Positions 3,081 through 20,642 of a stretch of 24,000 nt of DNA are shown here, piece by piece. Position 1 is the first letter of the stretch. Every line of letters begins with the position of its first letter. Source of the stretch: Pseudomonadales bacterium (lineage in GTDB: Bacteria; Pseudomonadota; Gammaproteobacteria; Pseudomonadales; Azotimanducaceae); contig JANQMF010000025.1 in NCBI GenBank assembly GCA_028280225.1, positions 1 to 24,000 on the forward strand, read 5' to 3'. The position numbers and the translations under genes are program-made. The notes beneath the pieces were generated by a model. It was not told where the DNA came from. It was given only the letters and a program-made list of their open reading frames with translations, and did not search any database.

Positions 3081-3187
3081 GCTCCATCCCCATTGACAAT
3101 ATGCCGCCTGCCTATCTTCACCCAAAGTTGCCTGAGGATCACCGACTAATTGCAGCCCACATTCGGAGCGCGTTTGAGCGAACTAAT

Positions 3188-3206
3188 GGTAATGATTATC
3201 ATTTGC
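3188..3206. promoter_or_regulatory. Fur box in the divergent DUF3604 / secreted-protein intergenic region
   Basis: GGTAATGATTATCATTTGC matches 15 of 19 positions of the GATAATGATAATCATTATC consensus. It sits in the spacer between a possible -35 TGGTAA (3187-3192) and -10 TAAAAT (3210-3215) for the + gene. Confidence 0.7.
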
Positions 3207-3245
3207 GTCTAAAATAGACCACCTTCAACCAAGGTTACAAAGCAG

Positions 3246-4379
3246 ATGAACTTGCCCGCCGCCACCGCCATTGCTGTCCTTTTCACCCTATTGTCCACTC
3301 CGGCACGGGCTGAAGCATCCGCTGATGCAACGCTGAAGGAACCATCCCGGCAATATACCTTTACCTGGCGCTTTCAACCCGAAAGCGAAATGGCGCCCAG
3401 AGGCGGCACCACCCAGGGTGCTGAAGTGACATTGGTTTCCGAACCTACCCCGGCCTGGCGCGCCCTTCAGGAGCCCGGTATCAGCCGAAAAGAAAAAGAC
3501 CGCCGGGCCATCCTGGCCATGGCGGGCCCCTACCGGGCTTCTTTTGACTTTATCGAAGCTGTTGGCCTGAATCCGGGTTATACCCCGCCCCGGCCATATC
3601 AATCCTGGGGCACAGAATATGTTTACGTGGTCGCAGACCAGCCGGACTTTATCAGCTTGCAACACATTCTCGTGATGTTCATGACCCAACCCGATGGCAG
3701 CCAATCCGAACCCATTGTGGTTAAACACTGGCGTCAGGACTGGCAATACGAACAACGCCGCTACTATGCTTATACCGGGCACAATCACTGGCGCGCTAAG
3801 AAAGTACCCCGGGGGCAACTGTCCGGCACCTGGGTGCAGAGTGTGTACCAGGTGGACGACTCTCCCAGATATGCTGCTTTCGGCCGTTGGGAGCATACAA
3901 AAAACTACTCCAGCTGGATCAGCAGCGAAACCTGGCGGCCCCTGCCCCGGCGGGAATTCAGTGTCCGCTCAGACTACGACACTCTGGTGGGCACTAATCG
4001 GCACACCATTACCCCCACGGGCTGGGTACACCTGGAAAACAACAAGAAAGTGGTGCTATCACGGGCCGAAAACCCGGAACCTCTGGAGGTGTTGTCTGTA
4101 GAAGTGGGACTGAACCGTTACGAACAAATTACCCAACACGACTGGAGCGCCGGGGATAATTACTGGGCGCACACCGGTGCATTCTGGGCCAACGTAAGAA
4201 ATCAGTGGGCACAACTGCTGCGCGAAGGTCGTGGGGTAAAATTGCACACCCGGACAGGAGAAAAGTCTCTATTTGCGGAAATGTTCTCGCTTGCCAGCAC
4301 CTATGCAGCAGACGCCTACGACGCCCAAGCCGCGACTGACGCTATTGCCCGCACGTTAAGGGATCACACTGCACCCTAG
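3246..4379 (+). CDS. Secreted protein of unknown function
   Basis: 377-aa ORF with a clear Sec signal peptide (MNLPAATAIAVLFTLLSTPARA/EA). It is Trp- and Tyr-rich (…VVKHWRQDWQYEQRRYYAY…WEHTKNYSSWISSETWRPLPRRE…). I do not recognise a family. Confidence 0.7.
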   Translation: MNLPAATAIAVLFTLLSTPARAEASADATLKEPSRQYTFTWRFQPESEMAPRGGTTQGAEVTLVSEPTPAWRALQEPGISRKEKDRRAILAMAGPYRASFDFIEAVGLNPGYTPPRPYQSWGTEYVYVVADQPDFISLQHILVMFMTQPDGSQSEPIVVKHWRQDWQYEQRRYYAYTGHNHWRAKKVPRGQLSGTWVQSVYQVDDSPRYAAFGRWEHTKNYSSWISSETWRPLPRREFSVRSDYDTLVGTNRHTITPTGWVHLENNKKVVLSRAENPEPLEVLSVEVGLNRYEQITQHDWSAGDNYWAHTGAFWANVRNQWAQLLREGRGVKLHTRTGEKSLFAEMFSLASTYAADAYDAQAATDAIARTLRDHTAP

Positions 4380-4699: not shown

Positions 4700-4743
4700 G
4701 TAATCTCCTGTTAAATTCTATGTAATCTCCTATTAAATTCTAT
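4700..4743. repeat. 22-bp tandem duplication (2 units, 1 mismatch) spanning the hmuV stop and the monooxygenase RBS
   Basis: gtaatctcctGttaaattctat (4700-4721) is followed by gtaatctcctAttaaattctat (4722-4743). On the coding (-) strand each unit carries AGGAGATTAC. Confidence 0.9.
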
Positions 4744-5513
4744 TGTGCGTAAACCATCAGCCGGTTGAGCCCGCCATGGTGTTCTACCGTCAGCGGTGTC
4801 CCATAAACACCACTCAACCGGGGCCCTTCCAGTACTTCGCCGGGAGACCCCGAGGCTATCAGAGCACCCTTGCACAGCAGATAAATATTGTCTGCATAGC
4901 GGCTGGCCAGGTTCAAATCGTGCATGACAATGATCACGCCTATACCCTGAGCCGCAGCGTCCTGCACCAGTTCCAACAACATAAGCTCATGCGCCACGTC
5001 CAGACTGGATGTCGGTTCATCCAACAACAAGAAGGCAGGCTGTGTCAGCGGCGCCATGGGACACACCTGCAACAAAGCCCGGGCAAACTGCACCCGCTGC
5101 TGTTCACCGCCAGACAAGGAATTGAAGGGGCGGTGAAGATAATCCGCAATATGACATTGCTCTATAACCGCCTGCATTTGCGTCTTCATCATGCCCTGGT
5201 TCGGGCGCACCCAGCCCATGGCCAGAATATCCTTAACTAAAAAATCAAAAACGATGTGGCTGGCCTGGGTCATTACCGCCCGTGCCAGAGCTTGTTCCAA
5301 CAGGCTCATATCCGTCAGCTTGCGGCCATGATAGCTGATGTTTCCGGCTCCACATTTCAGTTCACCACTTATAAGCTTGAGCAGGGTGGTCTTACCCGCA
5401 CCATTCGGACCGACAATAATGCTGACCTGACCGGCGGCAAACTCGGTACTGACGTCATTCACAAGAGTATCCTGGCGATAGGCAAACGATACATCATGCA
5501 AACAGATGCTCAT
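4740..5513 (-). CDS. hmuV: Heme ABC transporter ATP-binding protein
   Basis: Walker A GPNGAGKTTLL, signature LSGGEQQRVQFARAL and Walker B LLLDEPTSSLD are present. The ATG at 5511-5513 overlaps the hmuU stop in an ATGA arrangement. The ORF-track start at 5540 is a GTG. Confidence 0.9.
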   Translation of the reverse strand: MSICLHDVSFAYRQDTLVNDVSTEFAAGQVSIIVGPNGAGKTTLLKLISGELKCGAGNISYHGRKLTDMSLLEQALARAVMTQASHIVFDFLVKDILAMGWVRPNQGMMKTQMQAVIEQCHIADYLHRPFNSLSGGEQQRVQFARALLQVCPMAPLTQPAFLLLDEPTSSLDVAHELMLLELVQDAAAQGIGVIIVMHDLNLASRYADNIYLLCKGALIASGSPGEVLEGPRLSGVYGTPLTVEHHGGLNRLMVYAQ

Positions 5514-6544
5514 CTGCGGCGCATCCGCGCAATCAGCCACAGGAAAAAAGGTGCGCCAAGGGCGCTGGTCACCAGGCTGACCGGCAATTCCGCCGGAACA
5601 ATCACGGTGCGTGCTAACAGGTCCGCCAGCACCATAAGCCCGGCACCCAATAAAAGTGAGCCGGCCAACAGATACCGGTGCAGCGGCCCAATCATCAGCC
5701 GGACAAGATGCGGCACAATCAAACCCACAAAGCCAATGATGCCGGACAACGCAACCCCGGCACCCACCGCCACCGCCGACATCAGGATCACAACCCGTTT
5801 CAAACGCCCAACGTTAATACCAAGGTGCGCGGCTTCCGCCTCGCCAAGCTGCAACAGATCTAACTGCCTGCCCTGGCGAATCAGCAATATGCCGGCGGCG
5901 GACATGACCAACAAGGCCGGAATAACCGTATCCCAGCCCGCGCGGCCAAAACTCCCCATCATCCAGAACACCAGGTTACGTAACTGACGATCATCGCTGA
6001 GATATTCAAAAGCCCCAATGCCCACCGTAGACAGCGCATTAACCGCAATACCTACTAATAACAGGGTCACAATACTGAATTGACCAAACCAGGCAGCAAA
6101 TCCATATAAGAAACTGGTCACCAGCAGTGCTCCGGCCACCGCCGCCAGCGGCACCGCGTAGGCTGCCCAGCCCGCAGGAAGATCAATCAAGTCCCCCAGA
6201 ACAATCATGGCAATCGCCCCCAGCGCCGCCCCCGCAGAAACACCAATAAGCGTGGGATCGGCTAACGGATTGCGAAACAATCCTTGCAGGCAGGCACCGG
6301 ATAACCCCAACATGGCCCCCACCCCGGCGGCCAACAGCACCCGGGGGGCTCGAATTTCAAAAAATACCGTGTGTTGCAAATCTGTCGCCTGCTGCCGCAA
6401 TATCTCCCAAACCGGCAGCGGAATTGCGCCCACTGAAAATGCCAAAAACAAACTGATAACGGTCAGGGCCAACAAGACCCACAGCTTGCTGACCTGTGCT
6501 GTCAACATCGAGACAGACGCAAGAGACGAGGCCGGTACGCTCAA
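5510..6544 (-). CDS. hmuU: FecCD-family heme ABC transporter permease
   Basis: Polytopic membrane protein with the typical FecCD/BtuC pattern (…LGLSGACLQGLFRNPLADPTLIGVSAGAALGA…). The start is ambiguous: TTG at 6544 overlaps the hmuT stop, and ATG at 6508 is the alternative. Confidence 0.9.
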   Translation of the reverse strand: MSVPASSLASVSMLTAQVSKLWVLLALTVISLFLAFSVGAIPLPVWEILRQQATDLQHTVFFEIRAPRVLLAAGVGAMLGLSGACLQGLFRNPLADPTLIGVSAGAALGAIAMIVLGDLIDLPAGWAAYAVPLAAVAGALLVTSFLYGFAAWFGQFSIVTLLLVGIAVNALSTVGIGAFEYLSDDRQLRNLVFWMMGSFGRAGWDTVIPALLVMSAAGILLIRQGRQLDLLQLGEAEAAHLGINVGRLKRVVILMSAVAVGAGVALSGIIGFVGLIVPHLVRLMIGPLHRYLLAGSLLLGAGLMVLADLLARTVIVPAELPVSLVTSALGAPFFLWLIARMRRR

Positions 6545-7419
6545 CCCGGGTCACCTTGTGGTTTGAACTGTTGTGCCAGATCCCTTGCCGCCACCAGGGT
6601 GCGGGGGCCAAAACCCAGCAGGGTCATACCATCCACAGCAATTATTCGAGCGTTTTTTCCCGCCTTGGTCAGGCGTACACTGGGGTGGGCCAACACGGCC
6701 TCACGACCACCCGCCGCTTCAATCCCACGCACAGGCATAACAATAAACTCAGGATCAGACTCTGCCATGGATTCCAGCGAGATGGGTTTCCAGCCGCTGA
6801 AGCCGGCAAATACATTATTTGCCCCAGCCATAGTCAACACGCCGTGGGCTGATGTATCGCGCCCACCTCCGGTGGGCACACCATCCGCCAACGATAGTAA
6901 TATACCCACCCTGGGGCGTTCACCCCCCTTATCAACCTGAAGCTGGTGGACCATGCCATCCATGGCATCCCTGAGCTTTGCTACGGCATTCGCCTGGGCG
7001 TCCATTATCTGAGCGATACAGGCAACCTTTTCGTAAATACCCTGGACGGTGTGCACCTCCGGCAGCACCACAACCGGCAGGCCCGCCTTGCGCACCTGTT
7101 CCACAACTTCCCCGGGGCCCATGTCATGTTCACCCAATACAAGCGTTGGGTTCAGTGCCAGCAGTCCTTCGGCGGAAACCGCGCGCACATAGCCTATAGA
7201 CGGCAGCCGGGTAGCTGCCTGGGGGAAATTTGAGGTACGGTCCACCGCCACAATTTTATCTTGCGCACCCAGCGCATAAATGATTTCCGTAATGGAACCA
7301 CCCGCCACCGCCACCCTGCTGGCATCCAGATCCCGGGTTGGACAAGACCCAGCCTCTGGTGCGGCAAAAGTCCGGGCCGTCAGCAGCACCAGGACGCAGA
7401 CGGCCAAGTAGTTGTTCAT
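6541..7419 (-). CDS. hmuT: Periplasmic heme/hemin-binding protein of ABC transporter
   Basis: Signal peptide MNNYLAVCVLVLLTARTFAAPEA. The body is a cluster-A/class-8 substrate-binding-protein-like sequence (RVAVAGGSITEIIYALGAQDKIVAVD…). It sits between the receptor and the permease. Its ATG directly abuts the receptor stop codon (7419/7420). Confidence 0.85.
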   Translation of the reverse strand: MNNYLAVCVLVLLTARTFAAPEAGSCPTRDLDASRVAVAGGSITEIIYALGAQDKIVAVDRTSNFPQAATRLPSIGYVRAVSAEGLLALNPTLVLGEHDMGPGEVVEQVRKAGLPVVVLPEVHTVQGIYEKVACIAQIMDAQANAVAKLRDAMDGMVHQLQVDKGGERPRVGILLSLADGVPTGGGRDTSAHGVLTMAGANNVFAGFSGWKPISLESMAESDPEFIVMPVRGIEAAGGREAVLAHPSVRLTKAGKNARIIAVDGMTLLGFGPRTLVAARDLAQQFKPQGDPG

Positions 7420-9669
7420 TTAGAAAACAACCTTAAGTGTTGCCCCGGCATTAAAACCGGGTTGGGTGAACCGCTCCGGCGCATCGCCGCCAATGGAAAG
7501 GGTGTCCGCCCAGCGAATGTACTCCCGATCCGTGACGTTAAAGAGCCCAACATTCAGCGTAATGCTGTCTGTGATATCAACGTAGGCCAACACGTCAACA
7601 ATGCCGTAGCCCGAGGTGGCCGGGCGTTCGCTGTCCGAAGCGATGTCACTTTCGTCCTTGCCTTCCACCAGGGTCATCACCACCTGGCCTCCCCAACGTC
7701 CACTTTGAGCGTCATACACCAGGCCCAGCACCGCAGTTAAGGGGTTAATCGTCTCCAGCGGCTCATCCCGCTCCAGATCTTCGCCGTCGGCATAAGCCAG
7801 TGAATAGCGCAGGCCAAACCCGGCAAGCGCTTCACTCAGCTCACCCAGCTCCACTAATCCGCTCAGCTCAACACCGTCTATTTCCACCTCCGCTCGGTTG
7901 ACCGACTGAAAGGTGCGAAAACCATCTACAGGGTCTATGCCACCGGTTGCCAAAAATTGGGGGGCCAGGGATAAGGGGTCAATAAAATCTTCGTACTCGT
8001 TGCTGAATACGGTCAACAGCATGTCACCGTAGCGGCCGTCCCAACGCAGGCCCAACTCGATACCTTCACTGGTTTCGGACACCAGATCGGGATTGGCAAT
8101 GGTTTTATAACCCCCCAGTGGATTGGTAAAACCAACGTTCACATCGTCGTAGGGGGGTGCACGGAAGCCTTCGCTATATCGGGCAAAGGTAGACCACGCC
8201 TCATTAAGCTGATACACCACGGACAAGGAGGTGGTGACCTCGGAGTCGTCATAGTCCTGGGGCAACTCGGTGCCCGGATTACCCGCCAGATAGATGGCAT
8301 CCGCCTGGGTGTCCGCATCAAATTGATCGTATCGTACCCCCGGGGTGACCCGGAGCTTGCCGTCCAGGAATATGATTTCGTCCTGAATAAAGTAGGCTAT
8401 CTGCTCAACCTCGGTGATGGGGAAGTCCCGAGTCGGCAGCGGAGAAAACTCAAACAGCGGGGTGCCGTCCAGGCTAAAGGTACCCCCGTTCCGCAAGGAC
8501 TTGTTGTCCGTCGCGTAATAATCCACACCATAGGTCAGCGTGTGGGCTACTTCCCCAGTGTTGAACGAAGACCCAAATTGCACCAGCGCCCCTTCAATTT
8601 CCTGTTCAAACTCTGAATAGCGGAACCGGGTTTGTGGCCCGCTTGCCGCAGTACGCATTTCGTTGGTGAGTTGCTCGCTGGTACCGGTTTGCTGATATAC
8701 CTTCAGCGCCAGGTGATTCAGCCAGCCTTCCTCACGGTCGTAGTGATAGTCAATGACCCATTTCTGCCGCTCGCGTTCGTCCCGGGCATCCCGGCTGTTA
8801 ATCAAGGTGCCGCGCACAAATGCACCGTAGTCGGACAATATTTGCGCATCGTTGGTGTGCTCAAACTGTTCATAAGAGAGCAGAAAGTTATGTCCCTCCC
8901 AGGGTGTGAATTCCAGTTTCGCCAGAATGGAATCCACCTCAATATCCTGGGGATCCGCCTCCTGGCGTTGCGCGGCGGTGTACCCTGACGAGCCTTGAGT
9001 CTCTGTCTCTTCAGCATCCCGGTGGGTATACGATATCAGGCCGGCAATCTGTTCGTTGCCCAGCGCCAGGGTGGTGGAAGCATTTAAGCTGCTGTCGTCA
9101 CTGGAATAACCGGCGTTGATGTCAGCATAAAACCCTTCTGCGTCGCTGACATAGTAGCTGGGTTTTTTGGTGGTAAAGGAAACAATGCCGCCCAGGGCAT
9201 CGCTGCCGTACAGGGACGATATGGGTCCCCGGGCAATCTCCACCAGTTCGATGCTGTCAACATCCACAAAGTCCCGGCGGGAATCCAGGAACGGGCCAAA
9301 ACTGAATTCATCCGGCACCCGCACACCATCCACAATGGTCAGCACCCGATTGCCTTCTATTCCTCTGATATTAAAACCGGATAAGCCGAACCGGCTGCCG
9401 GTGCCACTGACCGACACCCCCGGCTCGAAACGCACCAGATCAGCAATGTCCCGGGTGATCTGACGCTCAAGTTCTTCTGCGGTGATAACGGATATAGATG
9501 CCCCAACTTCGTTCACCTGCCGCTCGGTCCGGGTGCCTACGACTGTCATTACCTCGGTTTCCTGGTCTGCAGCCGCCTGTCCAGTCTCAGCAAAAATATG
9601 CCCTGAGGAAACCAGCGTCAGCAATGTCAGCCATGTGGCGCAAAGTGAAATGGTTTGTTTGTGAGCCAT
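7420..9669 (-). CDS. TonB-dependent heme/hemoglobin-type outer-membrane receptor
   Basis: The plug region reads TVVGTRTERQVNEVGASISVIT…IEIARGP.S.LYGSDALGG. FRAP (8155-8166) and an NPDL variant of the NPNL box (8083-8094) are characteristic of heme receptors. The C-terminus is …ATLKVVF. The start is chosen at ATG 9667-9669, preceded by AAGGAG 6 nt upstream and giving signal peptide MAHKQ…GHIFA/ET. An alternative ATG at 9702 overlaps the upstream ORF stop (ATGA). Confidence 0.85.
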   Translation of the reverse strand: MAHKQTISLCATWLTLLTLVSSGHIFAETGQAAADQETEVMTVVGTRTERQVNEVGASISVITAEELERQITRDIADLVRFEPGVSVSGTGSRFGLSGFNIRGIEGNRVLTIVDGVRVPDEFSFGPFLDSRRDFVDVDSIELVEIARGPISSLYGSDALGGIVSFTTKKPSYYVSDAEGFYADINAGYSSDDSSLNASTTLALGNEQIAGLISYTHRDAEETETQGSSGYTAAQRQEADPQDIEVDSILAKLEFTPWEGHNFLLSYEQFEHTNDAQILSDYGAFVRGTLINSRDARDERERQKWVIDYHYDREEGWLNHLALKVYQQTGTSEQLTNEMRTAASGPQTRFRYSEFEQEIEGALVQFGSSFNTGEVAHTLTYGVDYYATDNKSLRNGGTFSLDGTPLFEFSPLPTRDFPITEVEQIAYFIQDEIIFLDGKLRVTPGVRYDQFDADTQADAIYLAGNPGTELPQDYDDSEVTTSLSVVYQLNEAWSTFARYSEGFRAPPYDDVNVGFTNPLGGYKTIANPDLVSETSEGIELGLRWDGRYGDMLLTVFSNEYEDFIDPLSLAPQFLATGGIDPVDGFRTFQSVNRAEVEIDGVELSGLVELGELSEALAGFGLRYSLAYADGEDLERDEPLETINPLTAVLGLVYDAQSGRWGGQVVMTLVEGKDESDIASDSERPATSGYGIVDVLAYVDITDSITLNVGLFNVTDREYIRWADTLSIGGDAPERFTQPGFNAGATLKVVF

Positions 9670-9698
9670 GCCCAACTCCTTAGAAAATACAGACGGCA

Positions 9699-10019
9699 TC
9701 ATCCGTCTAAGCGGGTTAAATCAATGGGCCGTTCGGCGGTGGGAAGTTGCCGGGAGACCATGGCATCAGCCAGCCGGATTAAGATAGCCGCAGTGCGCTC
9801 GTGGCCTTCTGCGGCAATAATCCGATTCACCGCCATGTTCAACAGGGCATTATCGAATCTTGCCTGAATATTTGGGCTGACATCGAGGAACACCTTGGGC
9901 ATCACTGCTTCCAGCAGGCTCATGGCAGTTTTTGTATCTTTAACCTCCTGATCCAGGACGGTTCTGTCACCGGCTTTAACCAGATCTCTCGCTAGTGCTT
10001 CCACGCGTCGTATTCCCAA
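9699..10019 (-). CDS. Hypothetical small protein, first ORF of the heme-uptake operon
   Basis: 106-aa ORF with a TTG start as drawn. The internal GTG or ATG starts are also possible. It has no signal peptide and I recognise no family. It is retained because of its position and its stop/start overlap with the receptor ORF. Confidence 0.45.
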   Translation of the reverse strand: MGIRRVEALARDLVKAGDRTVLDQEVKDTKTAMSLLEAVMPKVFLDVSPNIQARFDNALLNMAVNRIIAAEGHERTAAILIRLADAMVSRQLPTAERPIDLTRLDG

Positions 10020-10053
10020 CCGTTAAACGAAGCGCTATTCGAACCTATTTTAA

Positions 10054-10080
10054 TTGCAAATGCAAATCGTTCTCATTAAT
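10054..10080. promoter_or_regulatory. Overlapping Fur boxes between the heme operon and the MFS gene
   Basis: GCAAATGCAAATCGTTCTC (10056-10074) matches 13 of 19 consensus positions. An overlapping GCAAATCGTTCTCATTAAT (10062-10080) matches 11 of 19. The site is an AT-rich patch in otherwise GC-rich DNA. It shares the GCAAAT…TTCTCATT flavour with the other boxes in this window. Confidence 0.6.
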
Positions 10081-10246
10081 ATTCGCGAAATGAATGCCGT
10101 GTCCAAGGCAAACTCAAGTACGTGAGTCACCCACAGCCCAGATCAACCCATGATGCAAGCGATGGATCAACAACAACCCCAGCACACCATGTTGGGTTGC
10201 GCCGGCCACCCAAATGGAGCTGCACCACATGCATAAGGGGCGGGTA

Positions 10247-11431
10247 ATGGCCGTGTTAGCACCCGGGCTTATTGCCTATTCCATGGGGCAAACAGTGCTA
10301 TTCGCCGTGGCCGGACCCGCTTTTCGGGAAATGGGGCTGCGTGAGTCTCAACTTGGGCTGATCATTTCCGCATCCGCTGTTGTATTTGTCTTTTCTTCCG
10401 CATTCTGGGGCAAAATTGCAGACCGCTGGGGCCGCCGTCCCTCCATCCTGTTTGGGCTGACCACCTATGGTTTAATCAGCCTGGCCTTTGCGGGGGTGAT
10501 GCAGCTTGGGCTGACCGCCCAGATGGCGGCAACAACCGCCTTTGTGTGGCTGCTGGTGTTGCGCCTGCTATACGCTGCCCTGGGGGCGGGTATTCAACCG
10601 GCATCCGTTGCGCTGATGGTGGACTTATCCGATGAAAACAACCGCTCTTCCGCAATTGCGGTTGTCGGCGCCGCCTTTGGCATCGGCATGGTTCTGGGCC
10701 CGGCTTCCGCTGCGGGATTGGTCAGCTTCGGCTTGTTGACACCCTTATACGCCATTGCCCTGTTTGGCATATTTGCCGCCATTCTGGCCGGTCTGTTTCT
10801 GCCATCGGATCAGATTCGTGAATCTGATGACGCGGAGGAAAGGGATATGGACAAGGGTCCTCTCCTGCCACTGATCGGCGCGGGCTTGTGTTTTTATGTG
10901 GCCATGTCGATCCTGCAACAGACCTTTGCCTTTAACCTGCAGGATGTGCTGGATACAAACAGCACCGATGCTGCCCAGCTGACCGGCTACTGCTTTATGG
11001 CCATTGCCATCGGCACCTTGGCGATGCAGGGGGGTGTCATTCAAGTGCTGAAGCCCGAACCGAAAACGCTGCTGTTTGTGGGGTTTCCCTTTGTTCTGGC
11101 CGGGATCATCCTGTATGCCCGGGCAGACGGTTTTGCCCTGATGCTCACCGCCGCAGTACTGATGGGTTGCGGTTTTGGCCTGACCACCCCCGGGCTGCTG
11201 TCCGCTGCCTCCTTACTCAGCGACAACACCCAACAAGGCAAGATTGCCGGCATTATGCAAGCGACCATGTCCGCCGGATATGTCATTGGTCCCCTCTGCG
11301 GCACCCTGCTGTACGAGGCAAACCGGCTTTTTGCCGCCGGCGCTGCTGTCGCCACCACCGCTATCGCCGGTATTCTGGTCTTGCTGTGGGCCCTCAAAAT
11401 AAGGCACCCGCAACCCGGACATTCCGCTTAA
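10247..11431 (+). CDS. MFS transporter (12-TM, DHA1/TCR-Tet-like)
   Basis: Hydrophobic 12-TM pattern with the MFS loop motif GKIADRWGRRPSILFG (the G-x3-D-R-x-G-R-R type between TM2 and TM3). The start is taken at ATG 10247, preceded by AAGGGG. The ORF-track start at 10214 is also an ATG. Confidence 0.85.
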   Translation: MAVLAPGLIAYSMGQTVLFAVAGPAFREMGLRESQLGLIISASAVVFVFSSAFWGKIADRWGRRPSILFGLTTYGLISLAFAGVMQLGLTAQMAATTAFVWLLVLRLLYAALGAGIQPASVALMVDLSDENNRSSAIAVVGAAFGIGMVLGPASAAGLVSFGLLTPLYAIALFGIFAAILAGLFLPSDQIRESDDAEERDMDKGPLLPLIGAGLCFYVAMSILQQTFAFNLQDVLDTNSTDAAQLTGYCFMAIAIGTLAMQGGVIQVLKPEPKTLLFVGFPFVLAGIILYARADGFALMLTAAVLMGCGFGLTTPGLLSAASLLSDNTQQGKIAGIMQATMSAGYVIGPLCGTLLYEANRLFAAGAAVATTAIAGILVLLWALKIRHPQPGHSA

Positions 11432-12093
11432 CCGGGCTTCAGGCCGTTCACTATGATATTCGCCTGACGCGCGTAACTCTGCTCAAAATCCGGCGGCAAC
11501 ATCTGGTTCAGCGCAGCCTCCAGATTAGGAAACTGTTCCAGCTCGTCTTCACTCAATTGCAGGACCTTATAGCCGTATTGGCCATTTTCCTCTTCCAGCC
11601 GCACAAGCTGTTCCTCCTTTTGCACAAAGGTAAAGACATGATCCAACACCAGGCCATAGGCCTGAAACGCGCCCAGGGGCGAAAAGCCATCGCGGATTAA
11701 CACCGCTAGAGAATATTCAACAATGGTGAACGCAGCAGGGGTTGTTGGGCCAATTTTTATGCCATAGGCGCTTGCACCCGGGGTGCGTTTCAGCGCAACT
11801 CTGAAGCTCTGTCCCAATTCCAGCAGATAACGATCCCAGGGCAGGCCGGCATCCGGCAGCGACACCCGGGCACAAAAAGTATCCATACACTCATCCAACA
11901 ACGCTTCCCGGGACGCTACATAGCGGTATAGCGCGGTGGTGGAGACGCCCAATTCTCTGGCCAAACCATGCATGGACAGATTGTCGACACCCATCCTCAG
12001 GGCAGCTTCGACTATTTTTTCTTTGTTGATCAGCGGTGGCCGCCCCCCAACCGAAGGCGGTTCACTTTGCAAAGCTCGTCGATGCCGTTTCAT
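11428..12093 (-). CDS. TetR/AcrR family transcriptional regulator
   Basis: The N-terminal HTH reads KEKIVEAALRMGVDNLSMHGLARELGVSTTALYRYVASREALLDE. It is divergent from the RND operon and convergent with the MFS gene. Confidence 0.9.
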   Translation of the reverse strand: MKRHRRALQSEPPSVGGRPPLINKEKIVEAALRMGVDNLSMHGLARELGVSTTALYRYVASREALLDECMDTFCARVSLPDAGLPWDRYLLELGQSFRVALKRTPGASAYGIKIGPTTPAAFTIVEYSLAVLIRDGFSPLGAFQAYGLVLDHVFTFVQKEEQLVRLEEENGQYGYKVLQLSEDELEQFPNLEAALNQMLPPDFEQSYARQANIIVNGLKPG

Positions 12094-12187: not shown

Positions 12188-12206
12188 GATAATGATTCTC
12201 ATTCGT
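12188..12206. promoter_or_regulatory. Fur box overlapping the RND-operon promoter
   Basis: GATAATGATTCTCATTCGT matches 14 of 19 consensus positions, with the first 9 nt perfect. It lies inside a sigma70-like promoter: TTGATA (12186-12191), a 17-nt spacer, then TTTAAT (12209-12214). A weaker second site (12 of 19) containing ATAATCAT lies at 12147-12165. Confidence 0.7.
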
Positions 12207-12244: not shown

Positions 12245-14590
12245 ATGTCCATCGAATCAAGATCCATGCGCACAGCCCGCGTCATCATTCAACATCGCTG
12301 GTGGTATCTGTTACTCACAACCCTGTTGACCTTCCTCACGGCCAGTCAGCTTCCGCACCTAAAGATCGACAACTCCAACGAATCATTTTTTCAGACCGGC
12401 GATCCCACTAAGTTAAGGCTGGACCGGTTTAAAGAGACCTTTGGCAACGACGATTTTGTCTTTGTCCTGGTTGACGTGAACAACGCATTTGATCCGCAAA
12501 CTTTACGGGCACTCCAAGGGTTGGCCGAACGCCTGGATCGGGAAGTCCCACACTTGCTGGACCTGACCTGGATCGGCAATGTGGAATGGATAGAGGGGGT
12601 CCCCGGCGGCATTGTCATCGACGAGCTGATTCCCGACTTGAATTTACCGGCATCCGAACTGGGTGAGATTAGCGCCAGGGCATTGGCAGACCCCTTATAT
12701 CGCGACCGCCTGGTGTCCGCTGATGCCCGCACCGTAGGAATACTGTTGGAGTTCGAAAACTACCCGGAATTGGGTATTGATCCACGCAAAGAAAGCCCAC
12801 CGGTCATCCAGGCCATTGTTGACGACTTTAAGACTTTCGAAACCCATCTGGTGGGTGGCCCGATCATGGACTACGACATGGACAACCAGACCGCAGTGGA
12901 GGCACCCCGCTGGATGATGGGTGCGCTCCTGGGCATGTGTCTGGTACTTGCCTTTACCACCCGATCTGTTTTGGGTGTTCTGGTACCCGCCGCCACCGTG
13001 ATCCTCAGCGTCATCTGGACCATGGGTTTTGTCTCCATGCTTGGGTTCACGCTGAACCTGCTGGTTATCCTGGTACCTACCCTAATTCTGTGTGTGGGTA
13101 TTGGCGATACCATGCATGTGGTTGCGGAACTCCAGCAGCACGAGCGAACGGGATTAAGCCGCAAAAACGCCTTGATCGCTACCTTGGATTTAGTCACCCG
13201 GCCCATCATCCTCACCACGTTGACCACCGCCATAGGCTTTTTAGCCTTTGTCGCCACTGATCTGATCCCCTTACAACAATTGGGTGTCCAGGCGGCGCTG
13301 GGGGTGGTAATTGCCTTTGTTTTGACCTTCATTTTTGCCGTCCCCGTGCTGTCCTTCAGGACCGCGCGCTGGCGCAAGGCGGAAACGGCACCTAAGGAGG
13401 ATAAAAAGACGGACCTATTTGATCGTCTGCTGACCCGGACCGGCAACTTTGTCACCGCCAATCCGCTGTTGATCGGCGGCACATTTTTGGTTTTGACCGT
13501 CGTGGCCCTGGTTGGCATGTCCCGGCTGATTGTCGAAACCAATACCATCCAGGATCTGCCTAACGATAACCCGCTGCGCGTGGCGTTCGAATATGTAGAC
13601 AGCAAAATGGGCGGATCCATGTCCATCGAAATTGTTGTTGATACCCGGCAACCCGATGGCATTAAAAATATCGATTTATTGCGCCAGGTTGAGCGCCTGC
13701 AGACCTTCCTTGGACAACAACCCGAGGTTACCCAGACCTCCAGTGTATTGGATCAACTCAAACAGATGCACCGCGCGGTACATGAGAATAACCCGGCCGC
13801 TTACCAACTGCCCGACGGCAGCAACCAGGTTGCCGAATATCTGTTGCTGTACGAGAGTGGCGGGGGTAACCAACTGGACAGTTTTGTCAGCTTTACCTAC
13901 GACCAGATCAGGGTACAAGCCAGAACCAAGTCCATTGCGCTGCGTGATGTTGAACGCCTGCAACAGGCTATCAACAACTTTGTAGAGGCAGAATTTTCCG
14001 GCAACGTGAGCGTCTACGACACCGGCACCCTGAGTATGTTTGCACGGATTGCCGATTTGATCGCCAAGGGGCAGTTGCAAAGTTTCTCCCTGGCATTTGT
14101 TGCCATCGCCCTGGTGATGATTGTCACCCTGCGGTCAATTGCGCTGGGCGCTATTGCCATGATCCCAAACGTGCTGCCCGTGGTTTTTGCCCTGGGCGCC
14201 ATGGGCTGGTTCGGTGCTCAATTAAATATGATCGGGATGGTTCTGGCCCCCATGATCCTGGGGGTTGCGGTAGACGATACCGTCCATTTCTTTGTTCGCT
14301 ACCGGCGCTATTTTCACGAAACAGGAAACTACACACAGGCTTACCTCAAAACCCTGAGAACCGTTGGCCGACCACTGCTCTTTACCACCCTGGTGCTCAT
14401 TGTTGGCTTTAGCGGCTTTCTGCTATCAATTTTCGCCGGACCACGGAATTTTGCCTTGGCGTCCATGCTCGCCTTTTCTACCGCTTTGTTGGCGGAATTC
14501 TTACTGGTCCCCGTATTGTTGTCCTGGCTCAAACCCCTGGGCCGGGAAGAAGCAGCCAATACCGTCAACTCACCGCTGATTACCACCTGA
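12245..14590 (+). CDS. RND-superfamily transporter, MMPL/HpnN-like (COG1033-type, two 6-TM bundles)
   Basis: 781 aa. N-terminus …RVIIQHRWWYLLLTTLLTF… The architecture is duplicated, with two hydrophobic blocks each preceded by a large soluble loop. The motifs …ILCVGIGDTMHVV… and …ILGVAVDDTVHFF… are typical of the exporter family. An alternative start is ATG 12266. Confidence 0.85.
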   Translation: MSIESRSMRTARVIIQHRWWYLLLTTLLTFLTASQLPHLKIDNSNESFFQTGDPTKLRLDRFKETFGNDDFVFVLVDVNNAFDPQTLRALQGLAERLDREVPHLLDLTWIGNVEWIEGVPGGIVIDELIPDLNLPASELGEISARALADPLYRDRLVSADARTVGILLEFENYPELGIDPRKESPPVIQAIVDDFKTFETHLVGGPIMDYDMDNQTAVEAPRWMMGALLGMCLVLAFTTRSVLGVLVPAATVILSVIWTMGFVSMLGFTLNLLVILVPTLILCVGIGDTMHVVAELQQHERTGLSRKNALIATLDLVTRPIILTTLTTAIGFLAFVATDLIPLQQLGVQAALGVVIAFVLTFIFAVPVLSFRTARWRKAETAPKEDKKTDLFDRLLTRTGNFVTANPLLIGGTFLVLTVVALVGMSRLIVETNTIQDLPNDNPLRVAFEYVDSKMGGSMSIEIVVDTRQPDGIKNIDLLRQVERLQTFLGQQPEVTQTSSVLDQLKQMHRAVHENNPAAYQLPDGSNQVAEYLLLYESGGGNQLDSFVSFTYDQIRVQARTKSIALRDVERLQQAINNFVEAEFSGNVSVYDTGTLSMFARIADLIAKGQLQSFSLAFVAIALVMIVTLRSIALGAIAMIPNVLPVVFALGAMGWFGAQLNMIGMVLAPMILGVAVDDTVHFFVRYRRYFHETGNYTQAYLKTLRTVGRPLLFTTLVLIVGFSGFLLSIFAGPRNFALASMLAFSTALLAEFLLVPVLLSWLKPLGREEAANTVNSPLITT

Positions 14591-14605
14591 GCCTTGGAGG
14601 GCACC

Positions 14606-15379
14606 ATGCATATCCGCATTCTAATCTGCATAAGCACTTTGTTGCTGACCCATATCGCAAACGCCACGCAACTCAGCGGCAGGGAAGTTGCGTTAAAAAT
14701 GGATGCCATCGACACCTCTTCGGACGGCACCCGGGATGCCACCATGGTGATCCAGCGGGGTAACCAGCAGTTGGTCAGAAAGCTGGCCATTTTGAATAAG
14801 AAATTTGGTGAAGACGAGCGATCACTGATCCGTTTTGTGGCACCTGCGGATGTCCGCGATACGCAATACCTGTCCTGGACCTATGAGGATCCCCAGCAGG
14901 AGGATGATATGTGGGTCTTCTTCCCCTCGGACAATCTGGTTCGCCGCATCAGCGGTGGGGGCAAAAAGGGTTCCTTTATGCGCAGCGATTTTGCCAACGA
15001 AGATATTGAGAACCGCGCGGTTGACGACGATGTCCACACCTTTGTTGAGCTGTCTAAGCTGAACACCCGGGATGTCTATGTGATTGAATCAAAACCCATA
15101 GCCGCCAAGGCCAAGGATTCAAACTACCATCACCGTCGGTCCTGGGTGGATCAGGAGTATTGGATTCCGCTGCAGATTGAGTACTACGACACCAGGGGAC
15201 GGTTGATCAAACGGCTGTCTCAAGGGGACATCCAACACATTGATGGCATTTGGACCGCTACTAAACTGGTTATGGAAACACCGCGCAGAAAGTCCAAAAC
15301 ACTCATGCAGTACGACAATGTGCGCTTTAACGTTGGTCATGCCACCAGCCGTTTTGAGCAAAGTGCCTTAAAGCGTTAA
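14606..15379 (+). CDS. LolA-like outer-membrane lipoprotein-sorting/carrier family protein (periplasmic)
   Basis: Signal peptide MHIRILICISTLLLTHIANA. The body (…RKLAILNKKFGEDERSLIRFVAPADVRDTQYLSWTY…MWVFFPSDNLVRRISGGGKKGSFMRSDFANEDI…) matches my memory of the LolA_like family that accompanies COG1033 transporters. GGAGG lies 5 nt before the ATG. The ORF-track start at 14594 is a TTG. Confidence 0.65.
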   Translation: MHIRILICISTLLLTHIANATQLSGREVALKMDAIDTSSDGTRDATMVIQRGNQQLVRKLAILNKKFGEDERSLIRFVAPADVRDTQYLSWTYEDPQQEDDMWVFFPSDNLVRRISGGGKKGSFMRSDFANEDIENRAVDDDVHTFVELSKLNTRDVYVIESKPIAAKAKDSNYHHRRSWVDQEYWIPLQIEYYDTRGRLIKRLSQGDIQHIDGIWTATKLVMETPRRKSKTLMQYDNVRFNVGHATSRFEQSALKR

Positions 15380-15383
15380 ACCA

Positions 15384-16616
15384 ATGCCTTACCCCATCGT
15401 GGCGTATGTCCTCTTGTTGGTCTTGTGCCCAACCATTGCCGCGGGAGCGTCGACGGACTTATTTGACTTTGATCTTAACGCCGCCGCCCCAAGCCAGGTG
15501 GATGATCGCTGGCGTATCGCCGGATTCGCCGAATCCAGACTGCAATATACCCAATCCGGAGACTGGCTCTCGCGGCGCCACGCGGGTCAAATTGAAGTAC
15601 GCTACCAGCACAGGCAATGGCGCAGCTTTGTGGCCGGCCGGGTCCAGTACGACGGTCCCACACGATCCTACAGCACCCCCCTGCGCAGCGAGCTTGTGGA
15701 AGCCTACATTACCCATGCCGGTCAAGACCGGGATATCACCCTGGGTAAACAGCGGGTGGCATGGGGTACCGCGGATGGGGTCAGCACCATCGACCGGGTC
15801 AACGCCATCGACCTGCGCGACCCTGTCGGAAATGCACGCACCGCTTCGCGCAGACCGTCCTGGTTAGTCAAATGGCGCCAGAAAGTTGGGGCGGGTGATC
15901 TGGAAGCGGTTTGGTTGCCCCGGGGGCGGGACCGCAAACTCCCGGAGTTCGGCAGCCCCTGGGAGCCATCCAGTCTGCACACCTTGCGCGCCGGGGCAAA
16001 GTCCAATGGTACTGTACTTGATATCCGGGACTTTCACCGGCCCGAAGGCGGGCTGCGCTACACGGTTTACGGCCGGGGGGTGGACTGGGGCGTTGCACTG
16101 TTTGAAGGTTATACCGACGCACCCGTCATTTTGGCCGCAACACCGGATGGTCTACGCCTCTCCCCCGAGAAAATCCGCACCTGGAACGTAAATACCGCCT
16201 TTGCCTACGCCGGCAGTACTTTTCGTGCGGAAATCGCCTATACCCCACAACTTACCACCGCGGGCACGCGCAGTAAGCTGGTCCAGGCCGTGGTCGGCTG
16301 GGACCGAACCTTTTTTGCGAATCTATACATTAACGTACAACTGTTTGCTGACCGGTTTACCAGCATTGACAGAACCGATCAGGGCATCACCTTTGCCGTC
16401 ACTAACAAAACCTTGAACGATTCCGTCACGTACGGTACCCGCGGGCAGGTGACCAGTGGTGCACAATCTGCCGTTGAAGTTTTCGCCGATTACAACGTTA
16501 ACGATGCCTGGCTATTGTCTTTGCGCACCTTAAAGTTCTCAGGGCGTAGCGGCACCGCGCTTGATGACTTTGACAACAACGATCTTGTTGAGCTGACTGC
16601 CCGTTGGTCGTTTTAG
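15384..16616 (+). CDS. Predicted outer-membrane beta-barrel protein (DUF1302-like/porin-like)
   Basis: Signal peptide MPYPIVAYVLLLVLCPTIAAGA. Alternating beta-strand-like segments. …LVEAYITHAGQDRDITLGKQRVAWGTADG… resembles the DUF1302 motif. The C-terminus …LTARWSF ends in an aromatic residue, the usual OMP signature. It starts 5 nt after the upstream stop. Confidence 0.6.
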   Translation: MPYPIVAYVLLLVLCPTIAAGASTDLFDFDLNAAAPSQVDDRWRIAGFAESRLQYTQSGDWLSRRHAGQIEVRYQHRQWRSFVAGRVQYDGPTRSYSTPLRSELVEAYITHAGQDRDITLGKQRVAWGTADGVSTIDRVNAIDLRDPVGNARTASRRPSWLVKWRQKVGAGDLEAVWLPRGRDRKLPEFGSPWEPSSLHTLRAGAKSNGTVLDIRDFHRPEGGLRYTVYGRGVDWGVALFEGYTDAPVILAATPDGLRLSPEKIRTWNVNTAFAYAGSTFRAEIAYTPQLTTAGTRSKLVQAVVGWDRTFFANLYINVQLFADRFTSIDRTDQGITFAVTNKTLNDSVTYGTRGQVTSGAQSAVEVFADYNVNDAWLLSLRTLKFSGRSGTALDDFDNNDLVELTARWSF

Positions 16617-17276: not shown

Positions 17277-17305
17277 ATATTATTGCAAATGAGAATCATT
17301 TGCAA
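17277..17305 (-). promoter_or_regulatory. Sigma70-type promoter with embedded palindromic Fur box
   Basis: TTGCAAATGAGAATCATTTGCAA is a near-perfect palindrome; the core 19-mer is GCAAATGAGAATCATTTGC at 17285-17303. Read on the - strand it gives -35 TTGCAA (17305-17300), a 17-nt spacer, then -10 TAATAT (17282-17277). The Fur site therefore occupies the spacer. Confidence 0.75.
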
Positions 17306-17415
17306 TTAGTGAGCGGTTGATGTGCGATTGATGAACGATCGGCGAACAGGCAGGGTGGGTGGCTTAAGGCACACCACCCGGAGCATAGCCGGCTGTGGCC
17401 TGACAGCGGGTGCCT

Positions 17416-19777: not shown

Positions 19778-20260
19778 TCAGGCCCCACCACCCTTATTCG
19801 ACAAAACCCCCATGGCGGCGATGATCAGCAGAACCACCACCAAAAATACACTGGGCAAACCCGGCAGGAAGCCAATGATGCTGATTAAACTGGCCTCGCC
19901 GAGAGGATTGTCACCCATGCTCAGCGCACGGTTGCCGGATGCATTCCCCAACCAGTAAAACAATGTGAAAGACCAGGCGATATATATAAAGCCGTAAGCC
20001 ATGAGCTTTTGTTTAAAGCCGGATAGATTCAACAAGGGCAACGTAAAGGCCACCGCCAACACCAGTAATCCATTTGTCACTCCGCCGGTATGGGCGCGTA
20101 CCCAGCCCTCGGTGGTGCCATATACGGGAATAGGCAAAATCCTGCCCGGCCATATTTCGAAACCGCCAATCAGATTAAACATCAGCATAAAGCCCGCCAG
20201 CATTGCCGCCAGCACCACCAATAAGCCATGGGCTATCATGGTTCGTTGTAGCTGCTCCAT
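19778..20260 (-). CDS. Styrene-oxide-isomerase (StyC/SOI)-like 4-TM membrane protein, predicted heme-b binding
   Basis: 160 aa with 4 TM helices. …MIAHGLLVV…MFNLIGGFEIWPG…TEGWVRAHTGGVTNGLLVLAVAFTLP…WSFTLFYWLGNASGNRAL… aligns along its length with my recollection of Pseudomonas StyC (…MAGHGILMI…WMNLVGGFEIIPG…PEGWARAHSGPALNGMMVIAVAFVLP…WSNVGFYLFSNFSPNRGL…). Equivalents of the SOI heme ligand and catalytic residues His58, Asn64 and Tyr103 are present as H57 (20090-20092), N63 (20072-20074) and Y102 (19955-19957). The assignment is from memory and needs HMM confirmation. Confidence 0.65.
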   Translation of the reverse strand: MEQLQRTMIAHGLLVVLAAMLAGFMLMFNLIGGFEIWPGRILPIPVYGTTEGWVRAHTGGVTNGLLVLAVAFTLPLLNLSGFKQKLMAYGFIYIAWSFTLFYWLGNASGNRALSMGDNPLGEASLISIIGFLPGLPSVFLVVVLLIIAAMGVLSNKGGGA

Positions 20261-20421
20261 CTTTTATCTCCCTCTTAAGATATCCACAAATCGTCAGGTT
20301 ACGCCCACCTCCGGCAGCATCCCCCAAGTCTCCCAAGCCTAAGACTTGCACGTATCGGCAACCAGTGCCAGCCAGTATGGTTTCTGAATGCCCCATGCAT
20401 GCAATCTGTTAGGACGAATTT

Positions 20422-20453
20422 GCTTACGCTGGGGTCTGACCCCAACGTAAGCG
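20422..20453. repeat. REP-like extragenic palindrome, copy 4
   Basis: Sequence is gcttacgctggggtctgaccccaacgtaagcg, with 15-nt arms, one mismatch and a 1-nt loop. It lies in the divergent intergenic region between the SOI-like gene and the TBDR. Confidence 0.75.
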
Positions 20454-20642
20454 GTTTTCAAGACTATTATCATAAATTATCCTTCACCGGAAATTCTTGG
20501 CGTTTCTACATTGCAATAGTTATCCCAACCCACTAGCCTTAGTGTTGACCCGCCTTGCGTATCCAGAAGTGACATGTGTCAGCAGACGCACCTAATTCCG
20601 TTTGTTTGCCGACAAGTAGCAAATTGTCTATCTGGAGGGATC

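Follow-up and report, generated by a model that had tools for sequence, protein, structure and literature searches.

An orphan styrene oxide isomerase-family protein from a Pseudomonadales bacterium, and a clade with a putatively remodelled pocket and a recurrent PF10118 partner gene

A 24,000-nucleotide stretch of DNA from a Pseudomonadales bacterium (contig JANQMF010000025.1; analysed at its full length and called the window below) encodes a small membrane protein that is a genuine member of the styrene oxide isomerase (SOI) family and has the SOI fold. On sequence grounds it is a member of this family and no equivalent of StyC. It belongs to what the sequences indicate is a distinct and widespread clade, named here the Phe98 clade, in which the Asn99 of SOI has been replaced by Phe. 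Throughout most of this clade a gene of the Pfam family PF10118 lies directly upstream of the SOI-like gene, and the two look like an undescribed two-gene module; the gene in the window has no PF10118 gene directly upstream. We propose, and regard it as an even call, that the window protein is an orphan copy of a haem-b Lewis-acid isomerase-like protein, that its pocket has been remodelled and is hydrophobic, and that it acts on something other than styrene oxide.

Results

Relationship to styrene oxide isomerase

When the window protein was searched with phmmer against the Protein Data Bank (PDB), its sole matches were the two SOI structures, namely 8pnu (E=1.5e-26, 37% identity, query residues 4-151 against chain residues 19-164), with which the alignment is gap-free through residue 105, and 30tw (E=4.5e-25, end to end). 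The NCBIfam model for StyC, NF045734, matched residues 8-151 at model positions 1-142 of 147 with E=1.1e-37 and 129.3 bits, a score below the 150 bits of the curated equivalog cut-off of that model, so that the StyC equivalog level is not reached. The identical protein P0001 carries a precomputed match to the Pfam family PF26512 ('SOI'); our local Pfam scan found no match for the SOI-like open reading frame (ORF), the local copy presumably being without this newer model. The first-pass annotation of the window, made from the sequence alone, had described an end-to-end alignment of this 160-residue ORF with SOI/StyC, and these searches bear it out.

The same holds for the four-helix fold that it had supposed. 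An AlphaFold2 (AF2) model of the window protein, built from 27 clade sequences and with a mean confidence (pLDDT) of 82, consists of four long helices with a beta-hairpin in the first periplasmic loop. In a Foldseek search this model matched 8pnu_A with E=9.5e-10, TM-scores of 0.88/0.90 and a root-mean-square deviation of 1.9 A, and all later matches were insignificant. The best of these insignificant matches were enzymes of the MAPEG group (LTC4 synthase, mPGES-1 and FLAP), with TM-scores of about 0.5 and probabilities of 0.75-0.87.

The SOI family is small, with 184 clusters (50% identity) in a set of 1.84 billion proteins, and at least 537 database proteins match the window protein at E<=0.001. 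The best 120 matches listed are 65-80% identical to it, with one exact match in addition, several of them originating from Tara ocean sampling. Among species-representative genomes a scan yielded 124 loci, the clade being found in more than 120 species, nearly all of them metagenome-assembled genomes (MAGs) from marine, lake, groundwater and wastewater samples. Their host labels are Pseudomonadales or Gammaproteobacteria, Binatia, Myxococcota and Rhodobiaceae/Parvibaculales, and the clade proteins go by the database names 'isomerase', 'styrene-oxide isomerase' or 'hypothetical protein'. In the tree the clade forms a long branch separate from SOI. We found no description of the clade, of its Phe98 signature or of the PF10118 pairing in the literature on PF10118, COG3687 and SOI phylogeny.

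Residues of the active site

The chain in 8pnu carries a His tag that makes its N-terminus 14 residues longer than the native numbering; because of this extension and of the gap-free alignment, the native SOI number is the window number plus one. Residues H57, N63, Y102 and R111 of the window protein thus correspond, without gaps, to His58, Asn64, Tyr103 and Arg112 of SOI. The first three of these correspondences, with their offset of -1, had been given correctly in the first-pass annotation, which nevertheless overlooked two replacements when it described the catalytic residues as kept: I94 and F98 stand where SOI has D95 and N99. Their placement is gap-free and anchored by the flanking WS and FY (LDGWSNVGFYL in SOI aligned to YIAWSFTLFYW in the window protein), and the face that reads Asp-Asn-Tyr on the third transmembrane helix of SOI reads Ile-Phe-Tyr here.

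The roles of these positions are known from work on SOI, where H58 is the axial haem ligand and N64, D95, N99, Y103 and L104 form the hydrogen-bond network that positions the substrate; activity is lost in the N99A and Y103A mutants and impaired in N64A and D95A (PMC11374702). In the SOI of Rhodococcus opacus (RoSOI1), H57 and R111 are important and the D94A mutant stays active (PMC12502698), so that loss of this Asp appears to be a minor change that need not abolish function.

Conservation within the clade (n=83) is close to complete: N63, Y102, R111 and F98 are each found in 83/83 sequences and H57 in 82/83. Position 94 is occupied by V, I, C, A or S and never by Asp. We also aligned 72 full-length SOI-family representatives at 50% clustering. 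Across this family-wide alignment His58, Asn64, Tyr103 and Arg112 are near-invariant, Asn99 is near-invariant outside the clade of the window protein, and Asp95 is restricted to the representatives nearest the two solved SOIs. A Phe at SOI position 99 is consistent only in the window's clade, and is otherwise seen in a few weakly matching or partial sequences.

In P0011 (L009:10001-10465), the sister of the window protein in a neighbour-joining (NJ) tree, the axial His is replaced by Asn (RANSGG against RAHxGG) and the PF10118 partner is retained. This Asn may reflect a fault in the assembly, or the ligand may really have been lost.

A PF10118 gene upstream of the SOI-like gene

Neighbouring genes were surveyed by calling ORFs in 83 clade loci and clustering them. 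A family of about 300 residues was found directly 5' of the SOI-like gene and on its strand: clustering showed it in 65 loci, and tblastn brought out 8 others that ORF calling had passed over. Once one duplicate locus and two contig-edge loci had been removed, this gene stood directly upstream on the same strand in 72/79 assessable non-redundant loci, mostly with gaps of 5-100 bp. The pair also occurs in L088, which holds the closest full-length relative of the window protein (78% identity), and in L089; the loci that bear it are drawn from L004, L009-L087, L088 and L089, and an example is given in Table 1. Apparent fusions of the two genes in L035, L044 and L079 were rejected as artefacts of the ORF caller, the genes being in different frames.

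The partner belongs to PF10118 (E=3.9e-57), a family described as 'predicted metal-dependent hydrolase'; no NCBIfam model matches it, and the papers found in our literature search make no mention of it. In the alignment of partner sequences E55, E85xxH88, E137 and E173xxH176, placed on four helices, are invariant, as are further histidines. Dimetal-carboxylate enzymes that activate O2 carry their ligands in this E/ExxH/E/ExxH pattern, and the partner may reasonably be taken, on its motif and its model, for a dimetal oxygenase or oxidase. The model is all-helical (pLDDT 91) and gave weak matches to the PDB (E>=0.2, TM-score <=0.5), the top ones being mostly dimetal-carboxylate enzymes, namely R2lox (R2-like ligand-binding oxidase), RNR R2, CmlI, CADD and ADO (aldehyde-deformylating oxygenase). 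Residues 191-220 form a borderline hydrophobic helix, with a maximum Kyte-Doolittle value of 1.54.

A tblastn search of the window with 65 partner sequences found no PF10118 gene or remnant of one. Seven other lineages, among them the close relatives L008 (79%) and L017 (75%), are likewise without a partner beside their copy. Monophyly of these partner-less copies was considered and rejected, for they are scattered in the NJ tree, although 4/8 fall in the window's subclade; the two genes therefore seem to have become unlinked several times.

Other genes near clade and family members

Beyond the PF10118 gene, a short-chain dehydrogenase (SDR) lies at most 100 bp downstream in 7 clade loci, and a Baeyer-Villiger-type flavin monooxygenase (BVMO) at a distance of up to 300 bp in 5. 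Also recurrent are glutathione transferases and family III CoA-transferases, and aldehyde dehydrogenases are almost absent. With SDR and BVMO genes as neighbours and aldehyde dehydrogenases so rare, a carbonyl product would fit, and there is a hint that it would be a ketone rather than an aldehyde. No sty-like neighbours recur in the 83 loci.

The surroundings of the window gene are not those of its relatives. The first-pass annotation had drawn attention to two paralogous TonB-dependent receptors (TBDRs) and a CYP153 cytochrome P450 beside it, and had read from them two possible functions, an epoxide isomerase fed by the P450 or a haem-handling protein. The survey lends neither its support, since the linkage on which they depend is not conserved and PF10118 is the neighbour that is. 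Among 82 surveyed clade loci, 6 have a TBDR within 10 kb (at most 28% identical to the first receptor, TBDR1) and 6 have a P450, and neither kind of gene is ever adjacent to the SOI-like gene. Of the latter six, L009 alone carries a CYP153-like P450. The only other CYP153-like gene is in L089, a locus outside the 82-locus survey in which five genes separate it from the pair; both are 54-55% identical to the P450 of the window and lie about 6 kb from the pair. Comparison of the window with its nearest relatives revealed no synteny beyond the SOI-like gene and the CYP153-like gene of L009 and L089. With TBDR and P450 linkage so rare in the clade, the receptor-flanked arrangement is specific to this genome, and the position of the gene between two receptors looks incidental.

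A ChrR-type cupin (Cupin_7) lies directly beside the SOI-like gene in two unrelated lineages (L008:1989-2860 and L002:10615-11100), and in L008 a gene for a zinc-ribbon protein precedes it. With two lineages only, these cupins give a hint that the SOI-like gene may be connected with an anti-sigma or oxidative-stress system of the ChrR kind. Two further loci, L092:3712-6603 and L094:2-1957, hold SOI-family members that fall outside the Phe98 clade and retain Asn99. One such member stands directly 3' of OmpW, with a gene of the AlkB-type FA_desaturase family and an SDR gene near, and another directly after an aldehyde dehydrogenase. These contexts suggest that the theme of an oxygenase with an SOI-like isomerase is wider than styrene.

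The gene in the window

Coordinates of the window gene and its surroundings are collected in Table 1. The gene is monocistronic: it is convergent with TBDR1, with 18 bp between the stop codons, and divergent from TBDR2. Around it we found no convincing sigma-70 promoter or terminator, and its upstream region held no Fur-box-like site (best match <12/19). An Rfam scan of the window, including this 313-bp spacer, detected no riboswitch and no small RNA. The GC content of the gene, about 0.51-0.52, is within the 0.50-0.58 of the adjoining genes and thus gives no clear sign of foreign origin. The spacer also contains a 31-bp near-perfect palindrome at 20422-20452, whose 15-nt arms (GCTTACGCTGGGGTC / GACCCCAACGTAAGC) are 93% complementary with 1 nt between them; it may be an operator or a hairpin, and no Rfam match to it was found.

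Table 1. Positions of the SOI-like gene, of other features of the window and of an example gene pair from another locus
Feature	Position	Strand	Remarks
SOI-like gene (SOI family, PF26512)	19778..20260	(-)	ATG start, 160 aa, four transmembrane helices
Shine-Dalgarno-like GAGGGAG	20268..20274	(-)	7 nt 5' of the SOI-like ATG; read from sequence
Divergent intergenic region, SOI-like gene / TBDR2	20261..20573	(.)	313 bp
TBDR1, 733 aa	17558..19759	(+)	Context only, association not conserved
TBDR2, 840 aa	20574..23096	(+)	Context only
CYP153-family P450, N-terminal 261 residues	23215..24000	(+)	Cut by the window end; 118 bp 3' of TBDR2
Haem-receptor-type TBDR, binding protein, FecCD permease and ABC ATPase	4740-9702		TBDR passes the TIGR01785/01786 haem-receptor cut-offs
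Fur-like site	17285-17303		Inside perfect 25-bp palindrome 17282-17306, ATTGCAAATGAGAATCATTTGCAAT; upstream of TBDR1
Fur-like site	3188-3206		Between DUF3604 and DUF6607 genes; best of the window, 16/19
Fur-like site	12188-12206		Between TetR gene and RND operon
Fur-like site	10056-10074		Between haem-receptor operon and MFS gene
DUF3604 (647 aa) and DUF6607 (377 aa) genes	1182-4379		Divergent pair
TetR regulator gene	11428-12093	(-)	Divergent from RND operon; Fur-like box in the common promoter region
Operon of HAE3-type RND/MMPL transporter, LolA-like protein and DUF1302 protein	12245-16616	(+)	LolA-like protein also matches DUF1329
ORF of 160 aa	16755-17237	(-)	Starts about 45 bp downstream of the Fur-like palindrome
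Example pair, PF10118 gene + SOI-like gene	L004:9024-9923 + 10001-10477		Outside the window

The absence of styA-, styB- and styD-like genes, already remarked upon in the first-pass annotation, was confirmed by Pfam and NCBIfam scans of window ORFs of at least 120 residues. So was the CYP153 neighbour, whose best PDB match over its 261 visible residues is CYP153A7 (3rwl, E=1e-87), followed by other CYP153 structures. The two adjacent genes do encode TBDRs, but at 29% identity in the N-terminal part and 23% in the C-terminal part they are distant and not recent paralogues, and neither receptor reaches any NCBIfam substrate-subfamily cut-off, those for haem and siderophores included. The description of the surroundings as a haem and iron acquisition region is partly borne out, by the haem-receptor operon and by four intergenic Fur-box-like sites at 13-16/19 consensus positions (seven scanning windows reach 13 or more, where shuffled sequence leads one to expect 1.4); it does not extend to the SOI-like gene itself, as the operon is about 10 kb away and none of the sites lies upstream of the gene. 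The 160-residue ORF upstream of TBDR1, which is also gene-called on the independent Logan contig L001 and has no Pfam or NCBIfam match, was rejected as a paralogue of the SOI-like gene, being unrelated to it despite its equal length.

Discussion

Proposed function and its alternatives

The window protein would be a haem-b-binding, probably trimeric, four-helix protein of the inner membrane. His57 of one subunit would ligate ferric haem b at the subunit interface, and Arg111 would hold a propionate; the conservation of this His and Arg argues for a ferric haem b still attached in the manner of SOI. With its sixth site open, the iron could then be the Lewis acid for an oxygen atom in a hydrophobic substrate positioned by Tyr102 and Asn63, and the invariance of the latter two residues argues that such an oxygen atom is still presented to the iron. 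The Ile-Phe-Tyr face on the third transmembrane helix would make the pocket more hydrophobic and otherwise shaped than that of SOI, and styrene oxide is therefore most likely not the substrate; a plausible one would be an epoxide of aliphatic or lipid-like type, which the protein would convert to a carbonyl compound by rearrangement. In most genomes the PF10118 protein, probably co-transcribed and putatively a dimetal O2-activating enzyme, would supply this substrate, and the window gene would be an orphan copy that has parted from its partner. The pairing suggests that an O2-activating enzyme produces the substrate on the spot, which would parallel the logic of StyA/StyB and StyC. Haem binding, the trimer, the Lewis-acid chemistry, the substrate class and the chemistry of the partner are what we infer; what the analysis shows is the family membership, the fold, the residue pattern and its conservation throughout the clade, the frequency of the partner and the lack of a conserved linkage to TBDR or P450 genes.

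Extended to the whole clade, the proposal is that the Phe98-clade protein and PF10118 form an undescribed module, present in over 120 species from water and soil, most of them uncultured, that couples a dimetal O2-activating enzyme to a haem-b membrane Lewis-acid catalyst, in which the change of Asn99 to Phe adapts the pocket to a substrate of aliphatic or lipid nature or to a rearrangement other than the Meinwald reaction of styrene oxide, and of which the window gene is an orphan member. We put this broader proposal forward tentatively, and on balance would lean slightly against it.

Several observations weigh against these proposals. The N99A mutation abolishes the activity of SOI, so that proteins of the Phe98 clade may have no isomerase chemistry left, and in the close relative P0011 (L009) the axial His has given way to Asn. 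The dimetal assignment of the partner comes from a motif and from weak fold matches (E>=0.2, TM-score <=0.5), and sequence and profile searches of the partner against solved structures gave no match. The window copy is without PF10118, the very gene proposed to supply the substrate, and the function suggested for the clade has been read entirely from sequences and predicted models.

The main alternative is that the Phe98-clade protein is no isomerase at all but a membrane anchor and/or a haem-b electron conduit for the PF10118 dimetal enzyme, the copy in the window being a leftover or having an unlinked partner. The clade-wide loss of an Asn that is essential in SOI would fit such a role, as would the tight and probably co-transcribed pairing with a protein that needs electrons and access to the membrane, and the borderline hydrophobic helix 191-220 of that protein. 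Yet Tyr102 and Asn63, which bind the substrate oxygen in SOI and would be needless in a pure electron carrier, are 100% conserved, no second conserved His or Met that could serve as sixth ligand was identified (His11 is Asn in 56/83 sequences), and intact orphan copies persist without the partner in at least 8 lineages; we therefore think this reading unlikely. Somewhat less likely again is that the window protein isomerises epoxides made by the neighbouring CYP153 from alkenes imported through the adjacent receptor. CYP153 enzymes epoxidise some alkenes, the CYP153 gene starts 2.95 kb away, just 3' of TBDR2, the orphan copy has no PF10118 supplier in the window, and L009 and L089 do carry a similar P450 some 6 kb from the PF10118/SOI pair. 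Against this, a receptor gene separates the two genes, which are on opposite strands, the P450 of L089 is five genes from the pair, a P450 within 10 kb is a feature of 6/82 loci and CYP153-like in one of them (L009), and the synteny with the window is confined to the SOI-like and CYP153-like genes.

If a small membrane protein that binds haem had been repurposed for handling it, an iron-acquisition region would be a natural setting, with the haem-receptor-type TBDR and ABC uptake operon at 4740-9702 and the four Fur-box-like sites, one of them in a perfect 25-bp palindrome upstream of TBDR1. We nevertheless consider this very improbable: no Fur-like site was found in the gene's own upstream region, the flanking receptors score below the haem and siderophore subfamily cut-offs, a TBDR lies within 10 kb in 6/82 clade loci and is never adjacent, and the haem of SOI is a buried structural and catalytic cofactor that is not exchangeable (PMC11374702). 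It is just as hard to credit that the protein is a true StyC merely unlinked from styABD. The end-to-end similarity, the conserved His, Asn, Tyr and Arg and the 'styrene-oxide isomerase' label that some sources attach to clade members would agree with it; the score of 129.3 against 150 bits, the 37% identity, the long separate branch, the replacement of D95 and N99 and the lack of recurrent sty-like neighbours in 83 loci do not. An orphan Lewis-acid isomerase-like protein with an altered pocket is the reading that we retain.

To our knowledge, SOI is the sole enzyme family in nature known to catalyse the Meinwald rearrangement, and it is sought after for biocatalysis. If the proposal is correct, a large natural clade with a remodelled, more hydrophobic pocket and a new oxygenase-like partner would widen the known substrate range, and PF10118, labelled a 'metal-dependent hydrolase', would gain a testable function. 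The clade-level result bears on enzymology and also on the annotation of metagenomic 'styrene degradation' genes: surveys that count clade genes as potential for styrene or polystyrene degradation probably over-call it. The place of the window gene between two TBDRs, an idiosyncratic arrangement, carries little functional information.

Comparison with known systems

There is a weak likeness to the MAPEG enzymes LTC4 synthase, mPGES-1 and FLAP, trimeric four-helix membrane proteins whose active sites lie between subunits and whose substrates are lipid epoxides or endoperoxides. It is one of architecture only, with insignificant E-values in both sequence and fold and no evidence of homology, and unlike SOI these enzymes bind no haem and use glutathione-dependent chemistry. 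Within the family, other uncharacterised members of PF26512, of the Thr/Ala95, Asn99, Tyr103 type, resemble the window gene in lying outside sty operons and beside oxygenase or carbonyl-processing genes; they differ from it in keeping Asn99, and in the few contexts recovered a PF10118 partner was not seen. The family representatives closest to SOI likewise keep Asn in the alignment where the window protein has Phe98.

The SOIs of Rhodococcus opacus 1CP (RoSOI1) and Zavarzinia compransoris share with the window protein the numbering of His57 and Arg111 and the roles proposed for them, and unlike the window gene they belong to styrene-degradation clusters (PMC12502698). The SOI of Pseudomonas sp. 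VLB120 (8PNU/8PNV, NF045734, PF26512) has family, four-helix fold and length class in common with the window protein, as well as the axial His, the propionate Arg and the Asn and Tyr that contact the substrate oxygen. The two are set apart by Asp95 and Asn99 of SOI, which are Ile and Phe in the window protein, and by a sequence identity of 37% with a score below the equivalog cut-off. StyC sits in a cluster of the styABCD type, with an epoxidase, a reductase and a phenylacetaldehyde dehydrogenase, and the window gene is without one. The conserved partner of its clade is PF10118 and not, as for SOI, a flavin epoxidase, and the clade is hosted not by soil styrene degraders but mostly by uncultured aquatic Pseudomonadales, Binatia, Myxococcota and Rhodobiaceae.

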